Shown here in pieces: positions 21,863-33,339 of a stretch of 33,339 bases of DNA; position 1 is the stretch's first letter, and every line of letters starts with the position of its first letter. The stretch is taken from IMG/VR virus record IMGVR_UViG_2531839180_000001. One strand, given 5' to 3'. The notes below the pieces were generated by a model that saw only the letters and a list, made by a program, of their open reading frames with translations, was not told the origin of the DNA and made no database searches. The position numbers and the translations under genes were made by a program. The DNA comes from a virus. Lineage: Duplodnaviria; Heunggongvirae; Uroviricota; Caudoviricetes.

Positions 21863-23556
21863 AATTGATACAACGCTGTATGATTAATGGCGAACGGGTG
21901 GAAATTGCCGATATAAACCTTGTTCTTACCCTGAATGCTGCCGGTCGTGGCTTCATTTCTGTTAACAATCTGTCACCCGAACACACACTTGCCGGCGCAA
22001 TGGTACAAATTGATCTCGGCCGTGACGGTGAAGCATGGCGCTATTTCTCCGGCTACATTGAGCGCGATCAACCTGCTGAAAATGGCTCACGTCGCCTTTT
22101 TATCCGTGAAGCAGCTGCTGTGCTGGATTTTGATTTCCCTTGCTCCATGCAACACCCGACGCTGCGGGGGGTACTCGATAATCTGGGGCGACAAAGCGGT
22201 ATCGTTTTTATCACTCCGGATGCGGATTATGCCAGTATACCAACTCCCTACATCACCCACAGCGGCAGCGGAGCACAACTGCTCAGCCAACTGGGGCGAG
22301 CATTCAGTATCAGCGATTACGTCTGGCACCCTATGCCGGACGGTTCTGTATTTGTGGGGAGCGCAGCTGATTCACGGTTTGCCAGTATTACTATGCCGGA
22401 TATTCCGCAACAGTACACACTCGGGCAAAGCGGCGGAAACAGCATCGACATCATGTTTATGGAAACTGTGCGACCGGGCGTGAATCTTCCCGCCGGGCGC
22501 ATTACCCGTGTAGCCCTCAACAACGAGAAAATGACCCTGACATGGGAGCGCCTTACCGCCACGGGTAGCCCTGTTTCCAAATCACCATTACGCAGACAAA
22601 TGGAAACACAGTTCCCGGAACTGGCCAGCGGTATTCTTCATACCCGGCTGGCGCGCGTCATTGCCCCAACGGAATCCGTCACCCTGGGCGATGTAGCCGA
22701 CAGCTTCCGCCCACGCTACGCCGTCGATGTGCAGTTGCTTGATGAGAACGGCAACGATAAAAACGATACACCTGTTTACCCGGCAGTACCCCTCCCCGTC
22801 CCCATGGCTGGCAGTGAGGCGGGATGTTTTGCCTACCCGCCAGCAGGCACCATCGTGGAAATATCCAACATTGAAGGACGACCGGATAAACCTGTCATCA
22901 GGCAAATCTTACCCGCGGGCCATAACCTGCCTGATGTAAAGCCCGGCGAACAGCTGCAGCAACAGCGCGCAGAAGTGTTTCAGCGTGTCACGACTGATGG
23001 AAGCTGGCACAGAGAAACCGATCAGCAAATCAGGGAGCATTCAGCCAGGCGAACCATTAACAGCGATCAGGAAGAACGCACAACAACAACCAGAACAACA
23101 ACAGTACAGGCAAACGACATAACCAGCGTTCTGGGAACCAGCAAGCTGATGACAGGTCAGACAGAACACATTACTACTGGCCATTATGCGATCGCAGCCG
23201 GTGAGCATATCCAGATGGTAGCGCAGGATTTGCTGACTAAACTCAAAGGGGCGACATCCACCATCGAGCATAACCTCACCGAAAACGTGGGAGGCCGCAG
23301 AACATGCCGGGCGGACGGTGGCCTGGAATTTACCGCCCCGACTGTATTTATTGGGCGCGGTGGCTCACGGGAAAAATCCGGACTTAATCTGCTGACGTTG
23401 TTGATTGATATTCTGGATCTGGTTCAGTTGCTGGCCACACACACTGCAAACCACACCCACAGCAACACTGGCACACCAACAAACAGCAGCGAACTTGCCG
23501 CAGACGCCCAACAGGCTACGAGCCTGCGCGAAAAATACGGCGACCTTATCGCCTAA
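21859..23556 (+). CDS. baseplate hub / central spike protein (gpD-like, possibly fused to a gpV-like spike tip)
   Basis: 565 aa, last gene of the late operon; C-terminus carries HTANHTHS (HxH), reminiscent of iron-binding spike apex motifs. Confidence 0.5.
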   Translation: MKLIQRCMINGERVEIADINLVLTLNAAGRGFISVNNLSPEHTLAGAMVQIDLGRDGEAWRYFSGYIERDQPAENGSRRLFIREAAAVLDFDFPCSMQHPTLRGVLDNLGRQSGIVFITPDADYASIPTPYITHSGSGAQLLSQLGRAFSISDYVWHPMPDGSVFVGSAADSRFASITMPDIPQQYTLGQSGGNSIDIMFMETVRPGVNLPAGRITRVALNNEKMTLTWERLTATGSPVSKSPLRRQMETQFPELASGILHTRLARVIAPTESVTLGDVADSFRPRYAVDVQLLDENGNDKNDTPVYPAVPLPVPMAGSEAGCFAYPPAGTIVEISNIEGRPDKPVIRQILPAGHNLPDVKPGEQLQQQRAEVFQRVTTDGSWHRETDQQIREHSARRTINSDQEERTTTTRTTTVQANDITSVLGTSKLMTGQTEHITTGHYAIAAGEHIQMVAQDLLTKLKGATSTIEHNLTENVGGRRTCRADGGLEFTAPTVFIGRGGSREKSGLNLLTLLIDILDLVQLLATHTANHTHSNTGTPTNSSELAADAQQATSLREKYGDLIA

Positions 23557-23595
23557 TCACCGGGCATAAAATCCACATAAACGCCCCATCACGCA

Positions 23596-23620
23596 ACGCA
23601 CGGTTCAGGCCGTGCGTTTT
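23596..23620 (+). terminator. rho-independent terminator of the late (tail) operon
   Basis: ACGCACGG / CCGTGCGT stem, TTCAGG loop, then TTTT; 40 nt after the hub gene stop. Confidence 0.65.
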
Positions 23621-24387
23621 CATATCTGCCACCTGATTAATGCGTTCTGCGTGCCATTCCGGCGCTGTATGCGCACACCACGTAAACGGTGTGACGTAAA
23701 GCGTGAGGTGACGTAAACCGCGCTACCCCCTCCAACCCGCGGGTTTTGTGTCGAAACAGTTTTTCAGTTTTCTGCCGTGCAAAAATGACCGCCAGCCCGC
23801 GCAGCAACTGAGGGAAAAGCGGAGATCTGAAATTTCACGCTTTGAAATTTTTTTCAGTTTTCAGAGAGGTTTTTACGATCACGCAAATGGCAGGAGCAAT
23901 AAAACAGCATGATATTAAAAGAGTTTTCATACTTTACGCGAGACGAAAAACGATCACGAAAGGATCACATTAAACAACCATCAAACAACGAAGCCAGACG
24001 CGGCGCAGCCTGCGTAAAATTAAGAGTCAAAATTAAACTGAAAAAAGGATCAATACCGCACCTCGATCGCACATGACGATCTACGCAGCAACAGGACGAA
24101 AAAACCGGCGCGAACGCCGGCGGAAGCATGTATCAAATGCGTGATTGAATAATGTCTGCGTTCAGGATATGCACAACAGAGTGTTGAAATTAGTCAACGT
24201 ATTGAAGCAAGAAAAAAAAGCAGGCTAGAATTCACGCGGACACCTTTCGACTGATGGCTGGACAGCAAACACGAAGGCCAGATGTAAAAAGGCCCAACTA
24301 AACCTTATGTTCAACTCTGGGCGTTTCACAACGTAATCAATAAGCGGGCAAGAGCTTAGCGCCTTTGCAAAAAAAGGAGCAAGTGCT

Positions 24388-24528
24388 ATGTCGCAAAAAT
24401 CGCTTATAGCCATCACGTTCTGCGTGACGGCAATCCTCATCATCTGGATGCTGCACGGTTCGCTGTGCGAGATACGGATGAGATTCTGGGGAGCGGAGTT
24501 TGCGGCGTTCTTACAGTGTAAGCAGTAA
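24388..24528 (+). CDS. Hok/Gef-family type I toxin (46 aa)
   Basis: AAGGAG 9 nt upstream of ATG; MSQKSLIAITFCVTAILIIWMLHGSLCEIRMRFWGAEFAAFLQCKQ has an N-terminal TM helix and the SLCE(I/L) core of Hok proteins; below the ORF-track size cutoff. Confidence 0.7.
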   Translation: MSQKSLIAITFCVTAILIIWMLHGSLCEIRMRFWGAEFAAFLQCKQ

Positions 24529-24616
24529 GGAAACCGCGACGGGGGAGTAATCCCCCGTCAATCGGTTGCTAAGGTTGGCTGAAGTGGCACCCTATCTCAC
24601 AGACATGAACAACAAA

Positions 24617-24648
24617 CCCGCAGCGTAAAAACTGCGGGTTTTCTTTTT
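24617..24648 (+). terminator. rho-independent terminator downstream of the hok-like gene
   Basis: CCCGCAG / CTGCGGG stem followed by TTTTCTTTTT. Confidence 0.7.
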
Positions 24649-24694
24649 GTTGCCCTCACAAATGAGGGTGACACTATTCGTAAGCAATAGGCAT

Positions 24695-24740
24695 GACAGA
24701 TCGATGCAATAAATCCGATCGATAAAAACGATCGATTTGT
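24695..24740 (+). promoter_or_regulatory. cluster of three GATC (Dam) sites upstream of the com-methyltransferase operon
   Basis: GATC at 24699, 24717 and 24730 within about 35 bp, 50-80 bp upstream of the com start. Confidence 0.5.
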
Positions 24741-24780
24741 TATCATATCGGCAGCAGTAACCACACAAGAGGTGCCGCAA

Positions 24781-24978
24781 ATGACGCAAAATGTACGATG
24801 CAAAAATTGCAACAAACTACTTGCCCGCGCCTCATTTCACTACATTGAAATAAAATGTCCGCGCTGCAAAACACTTAACCAGATAACGAGAGCCATTGAG
24901 CACCCCACACACATGAGGAGTTATGACCGTGGGGATCGCAATCCAGCACCAACCAGCACATACACCGGAACACACTAA
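24781..24978 (+). CDS. com: Com-like zinc-finger translational activator
   Basis: VRCKNCNKLL...HYIEIKCPRCK closely matches phage Mu Com as I recall it; AAGAGG SD; ORF overlaps the methyltransferase start by 56 nt. Confidence 0.75.
   Translation: MTQNVRCKNCNKLLARASFHYIEIKCPRCKTLNQITRAIEHPTHMRSYDRGDRNPAPTSTYTGTH
24903..24934 (+). promoter_or_regulatory. hairpin sequestering the methyltransferase SD and start codon
   Basis: CCCCAC (24903-24908) pairs with GTGGGG (24929-24934); the loop holds GAGGAG and ATG 24923. Confidence 0.5.
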
Positions 24979-25729
24979 GGTTTATCAGACTGACAATGCC
25001 ACGCTCTGTCGTGGGAATGCGCTGGAAATATTGCCGCTGATTGAGCCAGAAAGCATTGATGCCTTAATCACTGACCCACCTTACAGTTCGGGTGCGACAC
25101 ACAAGGCCGGACGCACCAACCAGGGCAGCCATGCAAAATATCTGAACGGCGAGAACCTTCACCGCTTTGATGGGTTCGCGGGTGAAAACATGGACGCCCG
25201 TTCGTGGGCTTACTGGACACAATTATGGATGGCACAGGCACACCGCGCAGTCAGGCCGGGCGGTTATGCCCTGGTATTTACTGACTGGCGACAACTACCA
25301 GCTTTAACCGATGCGTTTCAGGCCAGTGGCTTTACATGGCGCGGCATCATTGCGTGGAACAAGGGGAGGGGGTCACGAACACCCCATACCGGGTATTTCC
25401 GGCATCAGTGCGAATACATTGTCTGGGGCAGCAAAGGCCATTTAGATAAATCGCCTTCGGGGCCGTTCGACGGCTGCATGACGTTCCCGGTTATCCCGTC
25501 AAAGAAAATGCACCCGACCGGAAAACCAGAAGAACTAATGGCAGAGCTGGTCAGAACTGCGAATAGTGGCGGAACAGTCCTTGATCCCTTTATGGGGTCA
25601 GGAACAACGGGTGTGGCTGCACTGAAAGCAGGGCGAAAATTTATTGGTATAGAAACCAGTGATCATTATTTTGAGGTAGCAGCGCAGCGGCTTCGGGGGA
25701 CTATTACCACAACCATTTCGGCTACATAA
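24923..25729 (+). CDS. DNA N6-adenine methyltransferase, beta-class (DPPY before FxGxG), orphan
   Basis: DPPY motif IV near the N-terminus and DPFMGSGTTG motif I near the C-terminus; no adjacent restriction endonuclease gene. Confidence 0.85.
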   Translation: MTVGIAIQHQPAHTPEHTKVYQTDNATLCRGNALEILPLIEPESIDALITDPPYSSGATHKAGRTNQGSHAKYLNGENLHRFDGFAGENMDARSWAYWTQLWMAQAHRAVRPGGYALVFTDWRQLPALTDAFQASGFTWRGIIAWNKGRGSRTPHTGYFRHQCEYIVWGSKGHLDKSPSGPFDGCMTFPVIPSKKMHPTGKPEELMAELVRTANSGGTVLDPFMGSGTTGVAALKAGRKFIGIETSDHYFEVAAQRLRGTITTTISAT

Positions 25730-29894: not shown

Positions 29895-29956
29895 CCTAAA
29901 GAATCAAGACGATCCGGTACGCGTGATTTTCTTTTCACATTAATCTGGTCAATAAC

Positions 29957-29985
29957 CTTGAATAATTGAGGGATGACCTCATTTA
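29957..29985 (+). promoter_or_regulatory. sigma32 heat-shock promoter of clpB
   Basis: CTTGAATA, 13-bp spacer, CCTCATTTA fits the sigma32 consensus CTTGAAA / CCCCATNT. Confidence 0.55.
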
Positions 29986-30023
29986 ATCTCCAGTAGCAAC
30001 TTTGATCCGTTATGGGAGGAGTT

Positions 30024-32597
30024 ATGCGTCTGGATCGTCTTACTAATAAATTCCAGCTTGCTCTTGCCGATGCCCAATCACTTGCACTCGGGCACGACAA
30101 CCAATTCATCGAACCACTTCATTTAATGAGCGCCCTGCTGAATCAGGAAGGGGGTTCGGTTAGTCCTTTATTAACATCCGCCGGCATCAATGCTGGTCAG
30201 TTGCGCACAGATATCAATCAGGCATTAAATCGTTTACCGCAGGTTGAAGGCACTGGTGGCGATGTCCAGCCCTCACAGGATCTGGTGCGCGTTCTTAATC
30301 TTTGCGACAAGCTGGCGCAAAAACGTGGTGATAATTTTATCTCGTCAGAACTGTTCGTTCTGGCGGCACTTGAGTCTCGCGGCACGCTGGCCGACATCCT
30401 GAAAGCAGCAGGGGCGACCACCGCCAACATTACTCAAGCGATTGAACAAATGCGTGGAGGTGAAAGCGTGAACGATCAAGGAGCTGAAGACCAACGTCAG
30501 GCTTTGAAAAAATACACTATCGACCTCACCGAACGAGCCGAACAAGGCAAACTCGATCCGGTGATTGGCCGTGATGAAGAAATTCGCCGTACCATTCAGG
30601 TACTGCAACGTCGTACTAAAAATAACCCGGTGCTGATTGGTGAACCAGGCGTTGGTAAAACAGCCATCGTTGAAGGTCTGGCTCAGCGTATTATCAATGG
30701 CGAAGTGCCGGAAGGGTTGAAAGGCCGCCGCGTACTGGCGCTGGATATGGGCGCGCTGGTGGCTGGGGCGAAATATCGCGGTGAGTTTGAAGAGCGTTTA
30801 AAAGGCGTACTTAACGATCTTGCCAAACAGGAAGGCAACGTCATCCTGTTTATCGACGAATTACATACCATGGTCGGCGCGGGTAAAGCCGATGGCGCAA
30901 TGGATGCCGGCAACATGCTGAAACCGGCGCTGGCGCGTGGTGAATTGCACTGCGTAGGTGCCACGACACTGGACGAATATCGCCAGTACATCGAAAAAGA
31001 TGCTGCGCTGGAACGTCGTTTCCAGAAAGTGTTTGTTGCCGAGCCAACCGTGGAAGACACCATTGCTATTCTGCGTGGCCTGAAAGAACGTTATGAACTG
31101 CACCACCATGTGCAAATTACTGACCCGGCAATTGTTGCAGCGGCGACGTTGTCTCATCGCTACATTGCTGACCGTCAGCTGCCGGATAAAGCCATCGACC
31201 TAATCGATGAAGCAGCATCCAGCATTCGTATGCAGATTGACTCAAAACCAGAGGAACTCGACCGACTCGATCGTCGTATCATCCAGCTCAAACTGGAACA
31301 ACAGGCGCTAATGAAAGAGTCTGATGAAGCCAGTAAAAAACGCCTGGATATGCTCAACGAAGAACTGAGCGACAAAGAACGTCAGTATTCCGAGTTAGAA
31401 GAAGAGTGGAAAGCTGAGAAAGCATCGCTCTCTGGTACGCAGACCATTAAAGCGGAACTGGAGCAGGCGAAAATCGCCATTGAACAGGCTCGCCGTGTTG
31501 GGGATCTGGCGCGGATGTCTGAACTGCAATACGGCAAAATTCCAGAACTGGAAAAGCAACTGGAAGCCGCTACGCAGCTCGAAGGCAAAACTATGCGTCT
31601 CTTGCGTAATAAAGTGACCGACGCCGAAATTGCTGAAGTGCTGGCGCGTTGGACGGGGATTCCGGTTTCTCGCATGATGGAAAGCGAGCGCGAAAAACTG
31701 CTGCGTATGGAGCAAGAACTGCACCATCGCGTTATTGGTCAGAACGAAGCGGTTGATGCGGTATCTAACGCTATTCGTCGTAGCCGTGCGGGGCTTGCGG
31801 ATCCAAATCGCCCGATTGGTTCATTTCTGTTCCTTGGGCCAACTGGTGTGGGTAAAACTGAACTTTGTAAGGCGCTGGCGAACTTTATGTTCGATAGCGA
31901 CGAGGCGATGGTTCGTATCGATATGTCCGAATTTATGGAGAAACACTCGGTGTCTCGTCTGGTTGGTGCGCCTCCGGGATATGTCGGTTATGAAGAAGGT
32001 GGCTACCTGACCGAAGCGGTGCGTCGTCGTCCGTATTCCGTCATCCTGCTGGATGAAGTGGAAAAAGCGCATCCGGATGTCTTCAACATTCTGTTGCAGG
32101 TACTGGATGATGGGCGTCTGACTGACGGGCAGGGGAGAACGGTCGACTTCCGTAATACGGTTGTCATTATGACCTCTAACCTCGGTTCCGATTTGATTCA
32201 GGAACGCTTCGGTGAACTGGATTATGCGCACATGAAAGAGCTGGTACTCGGTGTGGTAAGCCATAACTTCCGTCCGGAATTCATTAACCGTATCGATGAA
32301 GTGGTGGTCTTCCATCCGCTGGGTGAACAGCACATTACGTCGATTGCGCAGATTCAGTTGAAACGTCTGTACAAACGTCTGGAAGAACGTGGTTATGAAA
32401 TCCACATTTCTGACGAGGCGCTGAAACTGCTGAGCGAGAACGGTTACGATCCGGTCTATGGTGCACGTCCTCTGAAACGTGCTATCCAGCAGCAGATCGA
32501 AAACCCGCTGGCACAGCAAATACTGTCTGGTGAATTGGTTCCGGGTAAAGTTATTCGCCTGGAAGTTAATGAAGACAGGATTGTCGCCGTCCAGTAA
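30024..32597 (+). CDS. clpB: chaperone disaggregase ClpB
   Basis: 857 aa from ATG 30024 (GGAGG RBS; track ORF starts 12 nt earlier); two AAA+ modules with GEPGVGKT and GPTGVGKT Walker A motifs. Confidence 0.97.
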
Positions 32598-33039: not shown

Positions 33040-33339
33040 AAATTGAAGAGTTTGATCATGGCTCAGATTGAACGCTGGCGGCAGGCCTAACACATGCAAG
33101 TCGAACGGTAACAGGAATCAGCTTGCTGATTCGCTGACGAGTGGCGGACGGGTGAGTAATGTCTGGGAAACTGCCTGATGGAGGGGGATAACTACTGGAA
33201 ACGGTAGCTAATACCGCATAACGTCGCAAGACCAAAGAGGGGGACCTTCGGGCCTCTTGCCATCGGATGTGCCCAGATGGGATTAGCTAGTAGGTGGGGT
33301 AACGGCTCACCTAGGCGACGATCCCTAGCTGGTCTGAGA
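33040..33339 (+). rRNA. rrs: 16S ribosomal RNA, 5' partial (first 300 nt)
   Basis: Starts AAATTGAAGAGTTTGATCATGGCTCAG; Escherichia-type sequence with a variant V1 helix (GGAATCAGCTTGCTGATTC). Confidence 0.97.

Follow-up and report, generated by a model that had tools for sequence, protein, structure and literature searches.

A rare, diverged leader allele of a prophage-borne hok locus in the 46-amino-acid Hok group

Introduction

The hok/mok/sok (parB) locus of plasmid R1 serves here as the reference for loci of the hok type. In R1, hok transcription starts 7 nt after the −10 hexamer TATGAT (T-7), toxicity is lost when stop codons are placed in mok ahead of hok, and a terminal 3′ stem-loop protects the truncated hok mRNA, which is destabilized when this structure is disrupted (PMC9841398). 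A 2026 preprint catalogued 32,532 hok loci and found hok to be enriched in prophages, while explicitly omitting Mok, Sok and mRNA structure (bioRxiv 10.1101/2025.08.07.668861). Among prophage hok/sok loci, the only one for which we found an experimentally assigned role is hokW–sokW of Sakai prophage 5, where Sok is lost on induction and Hok aids phage release (PMC8621323). The hok loci of the E. coli chromosome are reported, as cited in the preprint, to be inactive or degenerate in their regulatory parts (bioRxiv 10.1101/2025.08.07.668861).

Here we analysed a 33,339-nt stretch of viral DNA (IMG/VR record IMGVR_UViG_2531839180_000001; the window throughout), in which a first-pass annotation, made from the sequence alone, had proposed an unlisted hok-family type I toxin gene with flanking RNA structures. 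The window hok is a known and already annotated kind of gene, and its leader allele is rare. With the group of 46-amino-acid (46-aa) Hok peptides (WP_000078904.1 / WP_000078920.1, PHROG 251, 'cluster 72') the locus shares the promoter layout, coding sequence (CDS), 3′ stem-loop, fold-back inhibition (fbi) homolog and terminator, whereas its leader is only ~60% identical to theirs, its tac is mutated, its mok reads ATG-TAA and its anti-Shine–Dalgarno (anti-SD) sequence is lost. Architecture and element order are shared with R1, down to a GC stem-loop that follows the stop codon, CUGAAG before fbi and a predicted Sok promoter that overlaps the hok Shine–Dalgarno (SD) sequence, and the leaders of sibling loci are colinear with the Rfam sok model, which was built on R1-type loci. 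In contrast to R1, the window Hok is 6 aa shorter and 34% identical, the mok start of the 46-aa family lies ~50 nt further upstream, and the window has neither mok, tac–fbi pairing nor a match to RF01794. The locus resembles hokW–sokW in being prophage-borne and K-12 hokA–E in having a Hok-family open reading frame (ORF); unlike hokA–E, it carries no IS disruption, its divergence is confined to the leader, and it falls far below the cut-offs of the HokA and Hok-subfamily models.

A Hok-family toxin gene

The toxin gene and its ribosome-binding site are the following.

24388–24528, plus strand: hok coding sequence, 46 aa, identical to RefSeq WP_000078904.1, with Pfam and PHROG matches
24374–24379, plus strand: hok SD sequence AAGGAG, ending 8 nt short of the hok ATG

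Both the 46-codon ORF and the AAGGAG motif are present where the first-pass annotation had placed them, and the ORF encodes the peptide MSQKSLIAITFCVTAILIIWMLHGSLCEIRMRFWGAEFAAFLQCKQ. Residues 6–44 matched Pfam HOK_GEF (PF01848) with 33.3 bits (E=3.7e-8), which exceeds the curated gathering score of 22 bits, and residues 1–46 matched positions 2–49/50 of the PHROG 251 profile ('MokW-like host killing'; phage moron) with E=1.8e-23. BLASTP aligned the peptide with R1 Hok at E=7e-8. By these statistics, the Hok resemblance noticed in the first pass exceeds chance by a wide margin. The more specific NCBIfam models gave scores far below their cut-offs, both for the HokA equivalog NF007290 (35.8 versus 89) and for the Hok subfamily NF007279 (25.2 versus 73). 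More than 80% of Hok peptides share seven residues, namely M1, C16, T18, L30, C31, E32 and E41 in R1 numbering (bioRxiv 10.1101/2025.08.07.668861), and the window peptide has all seven (M1, C12, T14, L26, C27, E28 and E37). An uncharged stretch spans residues 6–22 (LIAITFCVTAILIIWML). The window ORF counts with certainty among the type I toxin genes of the Hok family, and the outline of a hok/sok module around it is equally certain.

The gene was unlisted only with respect to the ORF list from which the first-pass annotation worked. RefSeq already holds the exact peptide as WP_000078904.1, named 'Hok/Gef family protein', and the same DNA occurs at 99.9% identity in RefSeq E. coli chromosomes. 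The name 'MokW-like', used in phage records for the 46-aa family, is a name only. We considered whether the gene might be hokW of Sp5 and ruled this out, as HokW has 51 aa and, by primer YO-357, begins MKQQKAM (PMC8621323), while the window peptide begins MSQKSLI.

A close relative of the peptide has been selected for a toxicity assay. Peptide 72_1621, 2 residues from the window Hok, stands in Table S2 of the preprint, which gives the homologs for those assays and includes two members of the 46-aa group; neither member is named non-toxic, 72_1621 is absent from the three sequences named non-toxic on overexpression, and one cluster of the selection was not clonable (bioRxiv 10.1101/2025.08.07.668861). 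The exact window peptide had no match in the accessible supplementary files of the preprint, and at 96% identity it would fall into 'cluster 72' (bioRxiv 10.1101/2025.08.07.668861).

Distribution and setting of the module

Of 5426 complete E. coli genomes, 1756 contain modules related to the window hok, a single genome having as many as 9 copies, and such modules are also carried by P88-like Peduoviridae, by Stx phages, where they lie beside lom, and by IncI1 plasmids. A scan of GTDB species returned 6 loci only, which makes the 46-aa hok group essentially one of Escherichia and Salmonella. Near-identical copies of this E. coli prophage hok also turned up under the labels Planococcaceae, Vagococcus and Xanthomonas pisi (L013, L015 and L017), most likely through contamination of those assemblies.

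The host element is a P2-like prophage, as shown by a baseplate gene and by portal, terminase and major head genes that follow the order of P2. The window hok lies at its right end, between the baseplate gene (which ends at 23556) and a com-like gene overlapping a DNA methyltransferase gene, in agreement with its earlier placement in the prophage accessory end; the host gene raiA is ~1.3 kb from hok and is followed by bamD and rluD. Homology to the copies in phages, prophages and plasmids starts at 24214–24243 and ends at 24592–24650, and comparison of these copies places the conserved module at about 24202 to about 24650.

Promoter, 3′ elements and mRNA structure

Four elements of the module flank the toxin gene and its leader.

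24202–24231, plus strand: hok promoter, −35 TTGAAG, 18-nt spacer, −10 TAGAAT
24538–24559, plus strand: 3′ GC-rich stem-loop GACGGGGGA/GUAA/UCCCCCGUC, 9 bp with a GUAA loop
24586–24592, plus strand: fbi homolog GGCACCC, with CUGAAG before it as in R1
24614–24651, both strands: bidirectional intrinsic terminator

The hok promoter was found by the promoter scan, and every copy of the family has its hexamers at this place. The predicted +1 is 24238, 7 nt past the −10, where position 1 of the Rfam sok model aligns in the sibling L002. At the other end, the terminator scan detected the terminator on both strands; it is common to P88-type copies and absent from Stx-phage copies, and the primary hok transcript (~410 nt) likely ends there.

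With its outer stem, the GC-rich stem-loop folds at −25.3 kcal/mol (z = −5.4; 0 of 200 shuffles equal). All 9 of its pairs form in the window, and in 17 relatives pairing is 100% and includes 4 compensatory pairs. The first-pass annotation had likened this hairpin to the fold-back element of hok mRNAs; by position, however, it corresponds to the terminal protective 3′ stem-loop of R1, and the fbi homolog is the GGCACCC at 24586–24592. We base the latter assignment on the 17 relatives, in which the 5′ GGGUGCCUUUCGGCU pairs with a 3′ end that contains GGCACCC (pairing P 0.66–0.998; duplex −13 to −22 kcal/mol). This closing helix of the 5′ and 3′ ends is 93.5–97.6% paired in the alignment.

The fold extends over the whole mRNA of the family. 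Across the 17 relatives, 91% of its pairs are formed, versus 39–44% in slid controls, and 21 pairs are changed on both sides, versus 5–11 in the controls; the fold tested on the alignment was the minimum-free-energy fold of L002, with the bias that this choice implies. An RNAalifold consensus of the 17 full-length relatives was set aside, as it showed a local 5′ fold in place of the 5′–3′ closure. In the window, all helices inside the CDS and downstream of it are intact.

A sharply diverged leader

Divergence of the window allele is concentrated in the leader, where the following features lie.

24238–24352, plus strand: hok mRNA leader, the Sok/target overlap, a sharply diverged allele
24238–24244, plus strand: tac-equivalent 5′ end, GGACACC
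24282–24287, plus strand: mok remnant, ATG then TAA, preceded by GAAGG at 24273–24277

The window leader is 57–62% identical to every other leader of the family, whereas identity to its closest (P88-type) relatives is 95–97% in the CDS and up to 98.5% in the 3′ untranslated region (UTR). The reverse pattern is seen in two pairs that are among the most divergent relatives, L007–L002 (leader 91%, CDS 62%) and L010–L002 (leader 81%, CDS 73%). The leader allele occurs in 8 of the 5426 genomes, with no intermediates among them, and it is near-clonal (0–3 differences over 561 nt). A sister prophage, L100, has the same backbone and a canonical leader. Among plasmids and phages no closer leader was found except a partial intermediate in the IncI1 plasmid copy L099, and searches of JGI metagenomes for a leader donor or a compensated lineage gave no hits.

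At the very 5′ end, GGACACC of the window stands against GGGTGCC in 16 of the 17 other alleles and GGATGCC in L003. Pairing of tac with fbi is correspondingly poor in the window (P 0.005; duplex −5.1 kcal/mol, versus 0.66–0.998 and −13 to −22 kcal/mol in the 17 relatives), which also has a weaker alternative 5′–3′ duplex of −20.4 kcal/mol. The tac/fbi helix forms 7 of 10 pairs and the mid-leader helix 7 of 15, both under the family minimum. The variant GGACACC was found in 3 IMG/VR contigs only, all near-identical, and an fbi complementary to it was present in no copy searched, so that the tac change is uncompensated.

The first-pass annotation had found no canonical mok start. We confirmed this in a particular form, as the homologous ATG at 24282 is present and is followed directly by TAA, and no other plus-strand ORF in the window covers the hok start. 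The first ATG of the leader, at 24254, opens a frame of 15 aa that was rejected as mok because it is not conserved. Across the family, mok has 1, 8, 10, 17, 19, 24, 29, 61 or 78 codons; only the 61- and 78-codon versions (L006, L007, L029 and L040) cross the hok start, and in most of 61 distinct leader-plus-hok sequences mok ends before the hok SD. Most copies have TGG as the second mok codon, but four separate lineages (the window at 24285–24287, L099, L008 and L010) have a stop there, and the stops are of three kinds, TAA, TAG and TGA.

The hairpin over the hok SD is also altered. At −9.1 kcal/mol it is the weakest of 18 alleles, the others ranging from −10.5 to −15.0 kcal/mol, and the anti-SD, CUCC in the family, is UUGC in the window.

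A predicted Sok-like antisense RNA

Opposite the leader we predict a promoter and a short RNA, the latter deduced from where the promoter lies and from folding.

24353–24382, minus strand: predicted Sok promoter, −35 TTGCTC (24382–24377, overlapping the hok SD), 18-nt spacer, −10 TAAGCT (24358–24353)
24286–24346, minus strand: predicted Sok-like antisense RNA of ~61 nt, with a 24-nt 5′ tail, an imperfect stem-loop (24322–24292) and a U5 tail

Comparison with L012, and with L002 as aligned to the Rfam model, shows the predicted hexamers at the place that corresponds to the Sok promoter of R1. The R1 Sok promoter, read on L012, is TTGCGC-17-TATCCT, and the family counterpart at this position reads TTGCTC-17-TAACCT. 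The window version matches 6 of 12 consensus positions and is too weak for the promoter scan. Predicted Sok RNAs of the window and five relatives are 58–61 nt long, each with a 5′ tail, a stem-loop and a U-tract, while the fold of the window RNA is weak and no better than shuffled sequence (z = −0.37, versus −4.1 for P88 and −4.7 for R1).

Two scans with the Rfam sok model RF01794, one of them of 231 nt, gave no match in the window at E<=10. Positive controls were detected, the R1-type locus with 87.2 bits and the siblings with 35.6–48.3 bits (E=5e-10 to 2e-5), the sibling scores being below the gathering score of 59. These controls rule out that the failure came from a missing model; only the window fails. 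A 72-aa ORF antisense to the hok leader (24225–24443, minus strand) was rejected as spurious, since it exists only in the window allele and shrinks to 28 aa in relatives.

Possible control of the window allele

From these elements we propose, with moderate confidence, that the window locus is an antisense-controlled module of the hok/sok type that works without mok coupling or a 5′–3′ lock. In brief, the sigma-70 promoter at 24202–24231 would give rise to a ~410-nt hok mRNA running from 24238 to about 24650, with the protective GC stem-loop, the fbi homolog and the terminator in its 3′ part, and the leader promoter overlapping the hok SD would produce the ~61-nt Sok-like RNA from the opposite strand (24346 to 24286). 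The short-lived antisense RNA would pair with the stable toxin mRNA, and cleavage of the duplex would keep Hok off, as in R1. When the antisense supply ends, Hok, a single-pass inner-membrane peptide, would be made and would damage the membrane. As mok reads ATG-TAA, the allele has no mok–hok translational coupling, and as its 5′ end is unable to pair with the fbi homolog, it has no 5′–3′ lock. With both safety layers missing, either the antisense RNA and a weak SD hairpin would be left to exert control, or Hok would be poorly made.

The main rival reading is regulatory decay, in which the toxin ORF is intact and the locus is effectively silent, like the chromosomal hok loci reported inactive. 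Because premature mok stops abolish toxicity in R1 (PMC9841398), the window ATG-TAA may simply silence Hok by leaving it untranslatable. The tac/fbi and mid-leader helices below the family minimum and the loss of the match to the Rfam sok model fit this reading, as do the codon-2 stops in four lineages, which are expected if mok loss is tolerated or favoured. However, the divergence is limited to the ~115-nt leader, and both promoters, the CDS (95–97%) and the 3′ UTR (98.5%) are kept, so decay is not uniform; moreover, loss of the anti-SD together with the weakest SD hairpin would favour translation independent of mok. We regard decay as possible but less likely than antisense control.

A further reading takes the diverged leader to be a functional swap of specificity that makes the window Sok/hok pair orthogonal to co-resident copies, the leader having probably been replaced by recombination with an unsampled relative. 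The predicted window Sok would pair with foreign leaders at −36 to −44 kcal/mol, and with that of L099 at −55 to −62 kcal/mol, while canonical alleles cross-pair at −52 to −97 kcal/mol and self-pairing lies at −111 to −124 kcal/mol. Genomes with the window leader allele often carry further copies of the family. Weak cross-pairing, the kept promoters and CDS and the co-resident copies allow such a swap, which we nonetheless hold to be unlikely. If it did occur, the toxin mRNA would escape the resident Sok RNAs, and control would have been rewired without mok or the tac–fbi lock.

A fully canonical locus of the R1 type, with mok coupling, a tac–fbi lock, 3′ processing and a Sok that blocks mok initiation, does exist within the family, as L006, L007 and L040 have all elements, a 61–78-aa mok and tac–fbi pairing at P>0.99. 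For the window, this reading is contradicted by the one-codon mok, the unpaired tac and fbi (P 0.005; −5.1 kcal/mol) and the absence of an RF01794 match, and we consider it highly improbable. That the ORF is a chance open frame among unrelated terminators, a view favoured by its small size and nothing else, can be dismissed given the Pfam, PHROG and BLASTP statistics, the RefSeq annotation of the peptide and the conservation of the whole module in >1700 genomes.

As a gene find the locus adds nothing, the peptide and its family being covered already by a RefSeq accession, Pfam, PHROGs and the hok catalogue. Since that catalogue leaves out Mok, Sok and mRNA structure, the anatomy of the 46-aa group may be modestly useful; its main points are that mok is truncated in most copies of the group and that the window leader allele replaces the Sok/target segment only. 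For antisense control without mok or the lock, as we propose it, L100 offers a natural pair with the window, having the same backbone and a canonical leader, by which to gauge the importance of mok and of the tac–fbi lock.

Sequences around the module

Upstream of the module, the terminator scan found a further hairpin.

24098–24121, minus strand: terminator-like hairpin GCCGGCG/UUCG/CGCCGGU followed by UUUUUU

The hairpin and its T-run are present as the first-pass annotation described them, with a folding energy of −12.9 kcal/mol (z = −1.9; 8 of 200 shuffles equal). The suggestion that it could end an antisense RNA fared less well: it lies outside the module, ~80 nt upstream of the hok −35 (24202) and ~90 nt upstream of the start of conservation at 24214, and ~165 nt past the predicted end of the Sok-like RNA. 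Its conservation is limited to the spacer upstream of the module in this prophage lineage (94–96% in L100 and L101), and it is missing from P2-like and Stx-phage copies of the module, where the module adjoins ogr or lom. At most, it would be a backstop terminator for leftward transcription.

The spacer that separates the baseplate gene from the hok module (23557–24213; ~650 bp) is unannotated and 84–100% conserved in related prophages. It is rich in GATC, with 7 sites versus 2.4 expected, and holds no ORF >56 aa.

On the other side, the com-like gene (24772–24978) encodes a zinc-finger protein and overlaps the DNA methyltransferase gene (24923–25729). Three GATC sites and a hairpin with a CGATCG palindrome (24715–24735) lie 5′ of it, and the whole layout (24699–25729) resembles com/mom of Mu, with the methyltransferase replacing Mom. 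The interval between hok and com carries different cargo in the sister prophages, a TM2-domain protein in one and a minus-strand hypothetical gene in the other (L100 1662–1958; L101 1676–2062), which marks this site as a hot spot for accessory-gene insertion.

Further along the window, a match to the RyfD sRNA (125 bits; 29905–30043) lies just upstream of the 861-aa ORF at 30012, whose start it overlaps, and the 5′ end of a 16S rRNA gene is found at the window edge (33040–33339).
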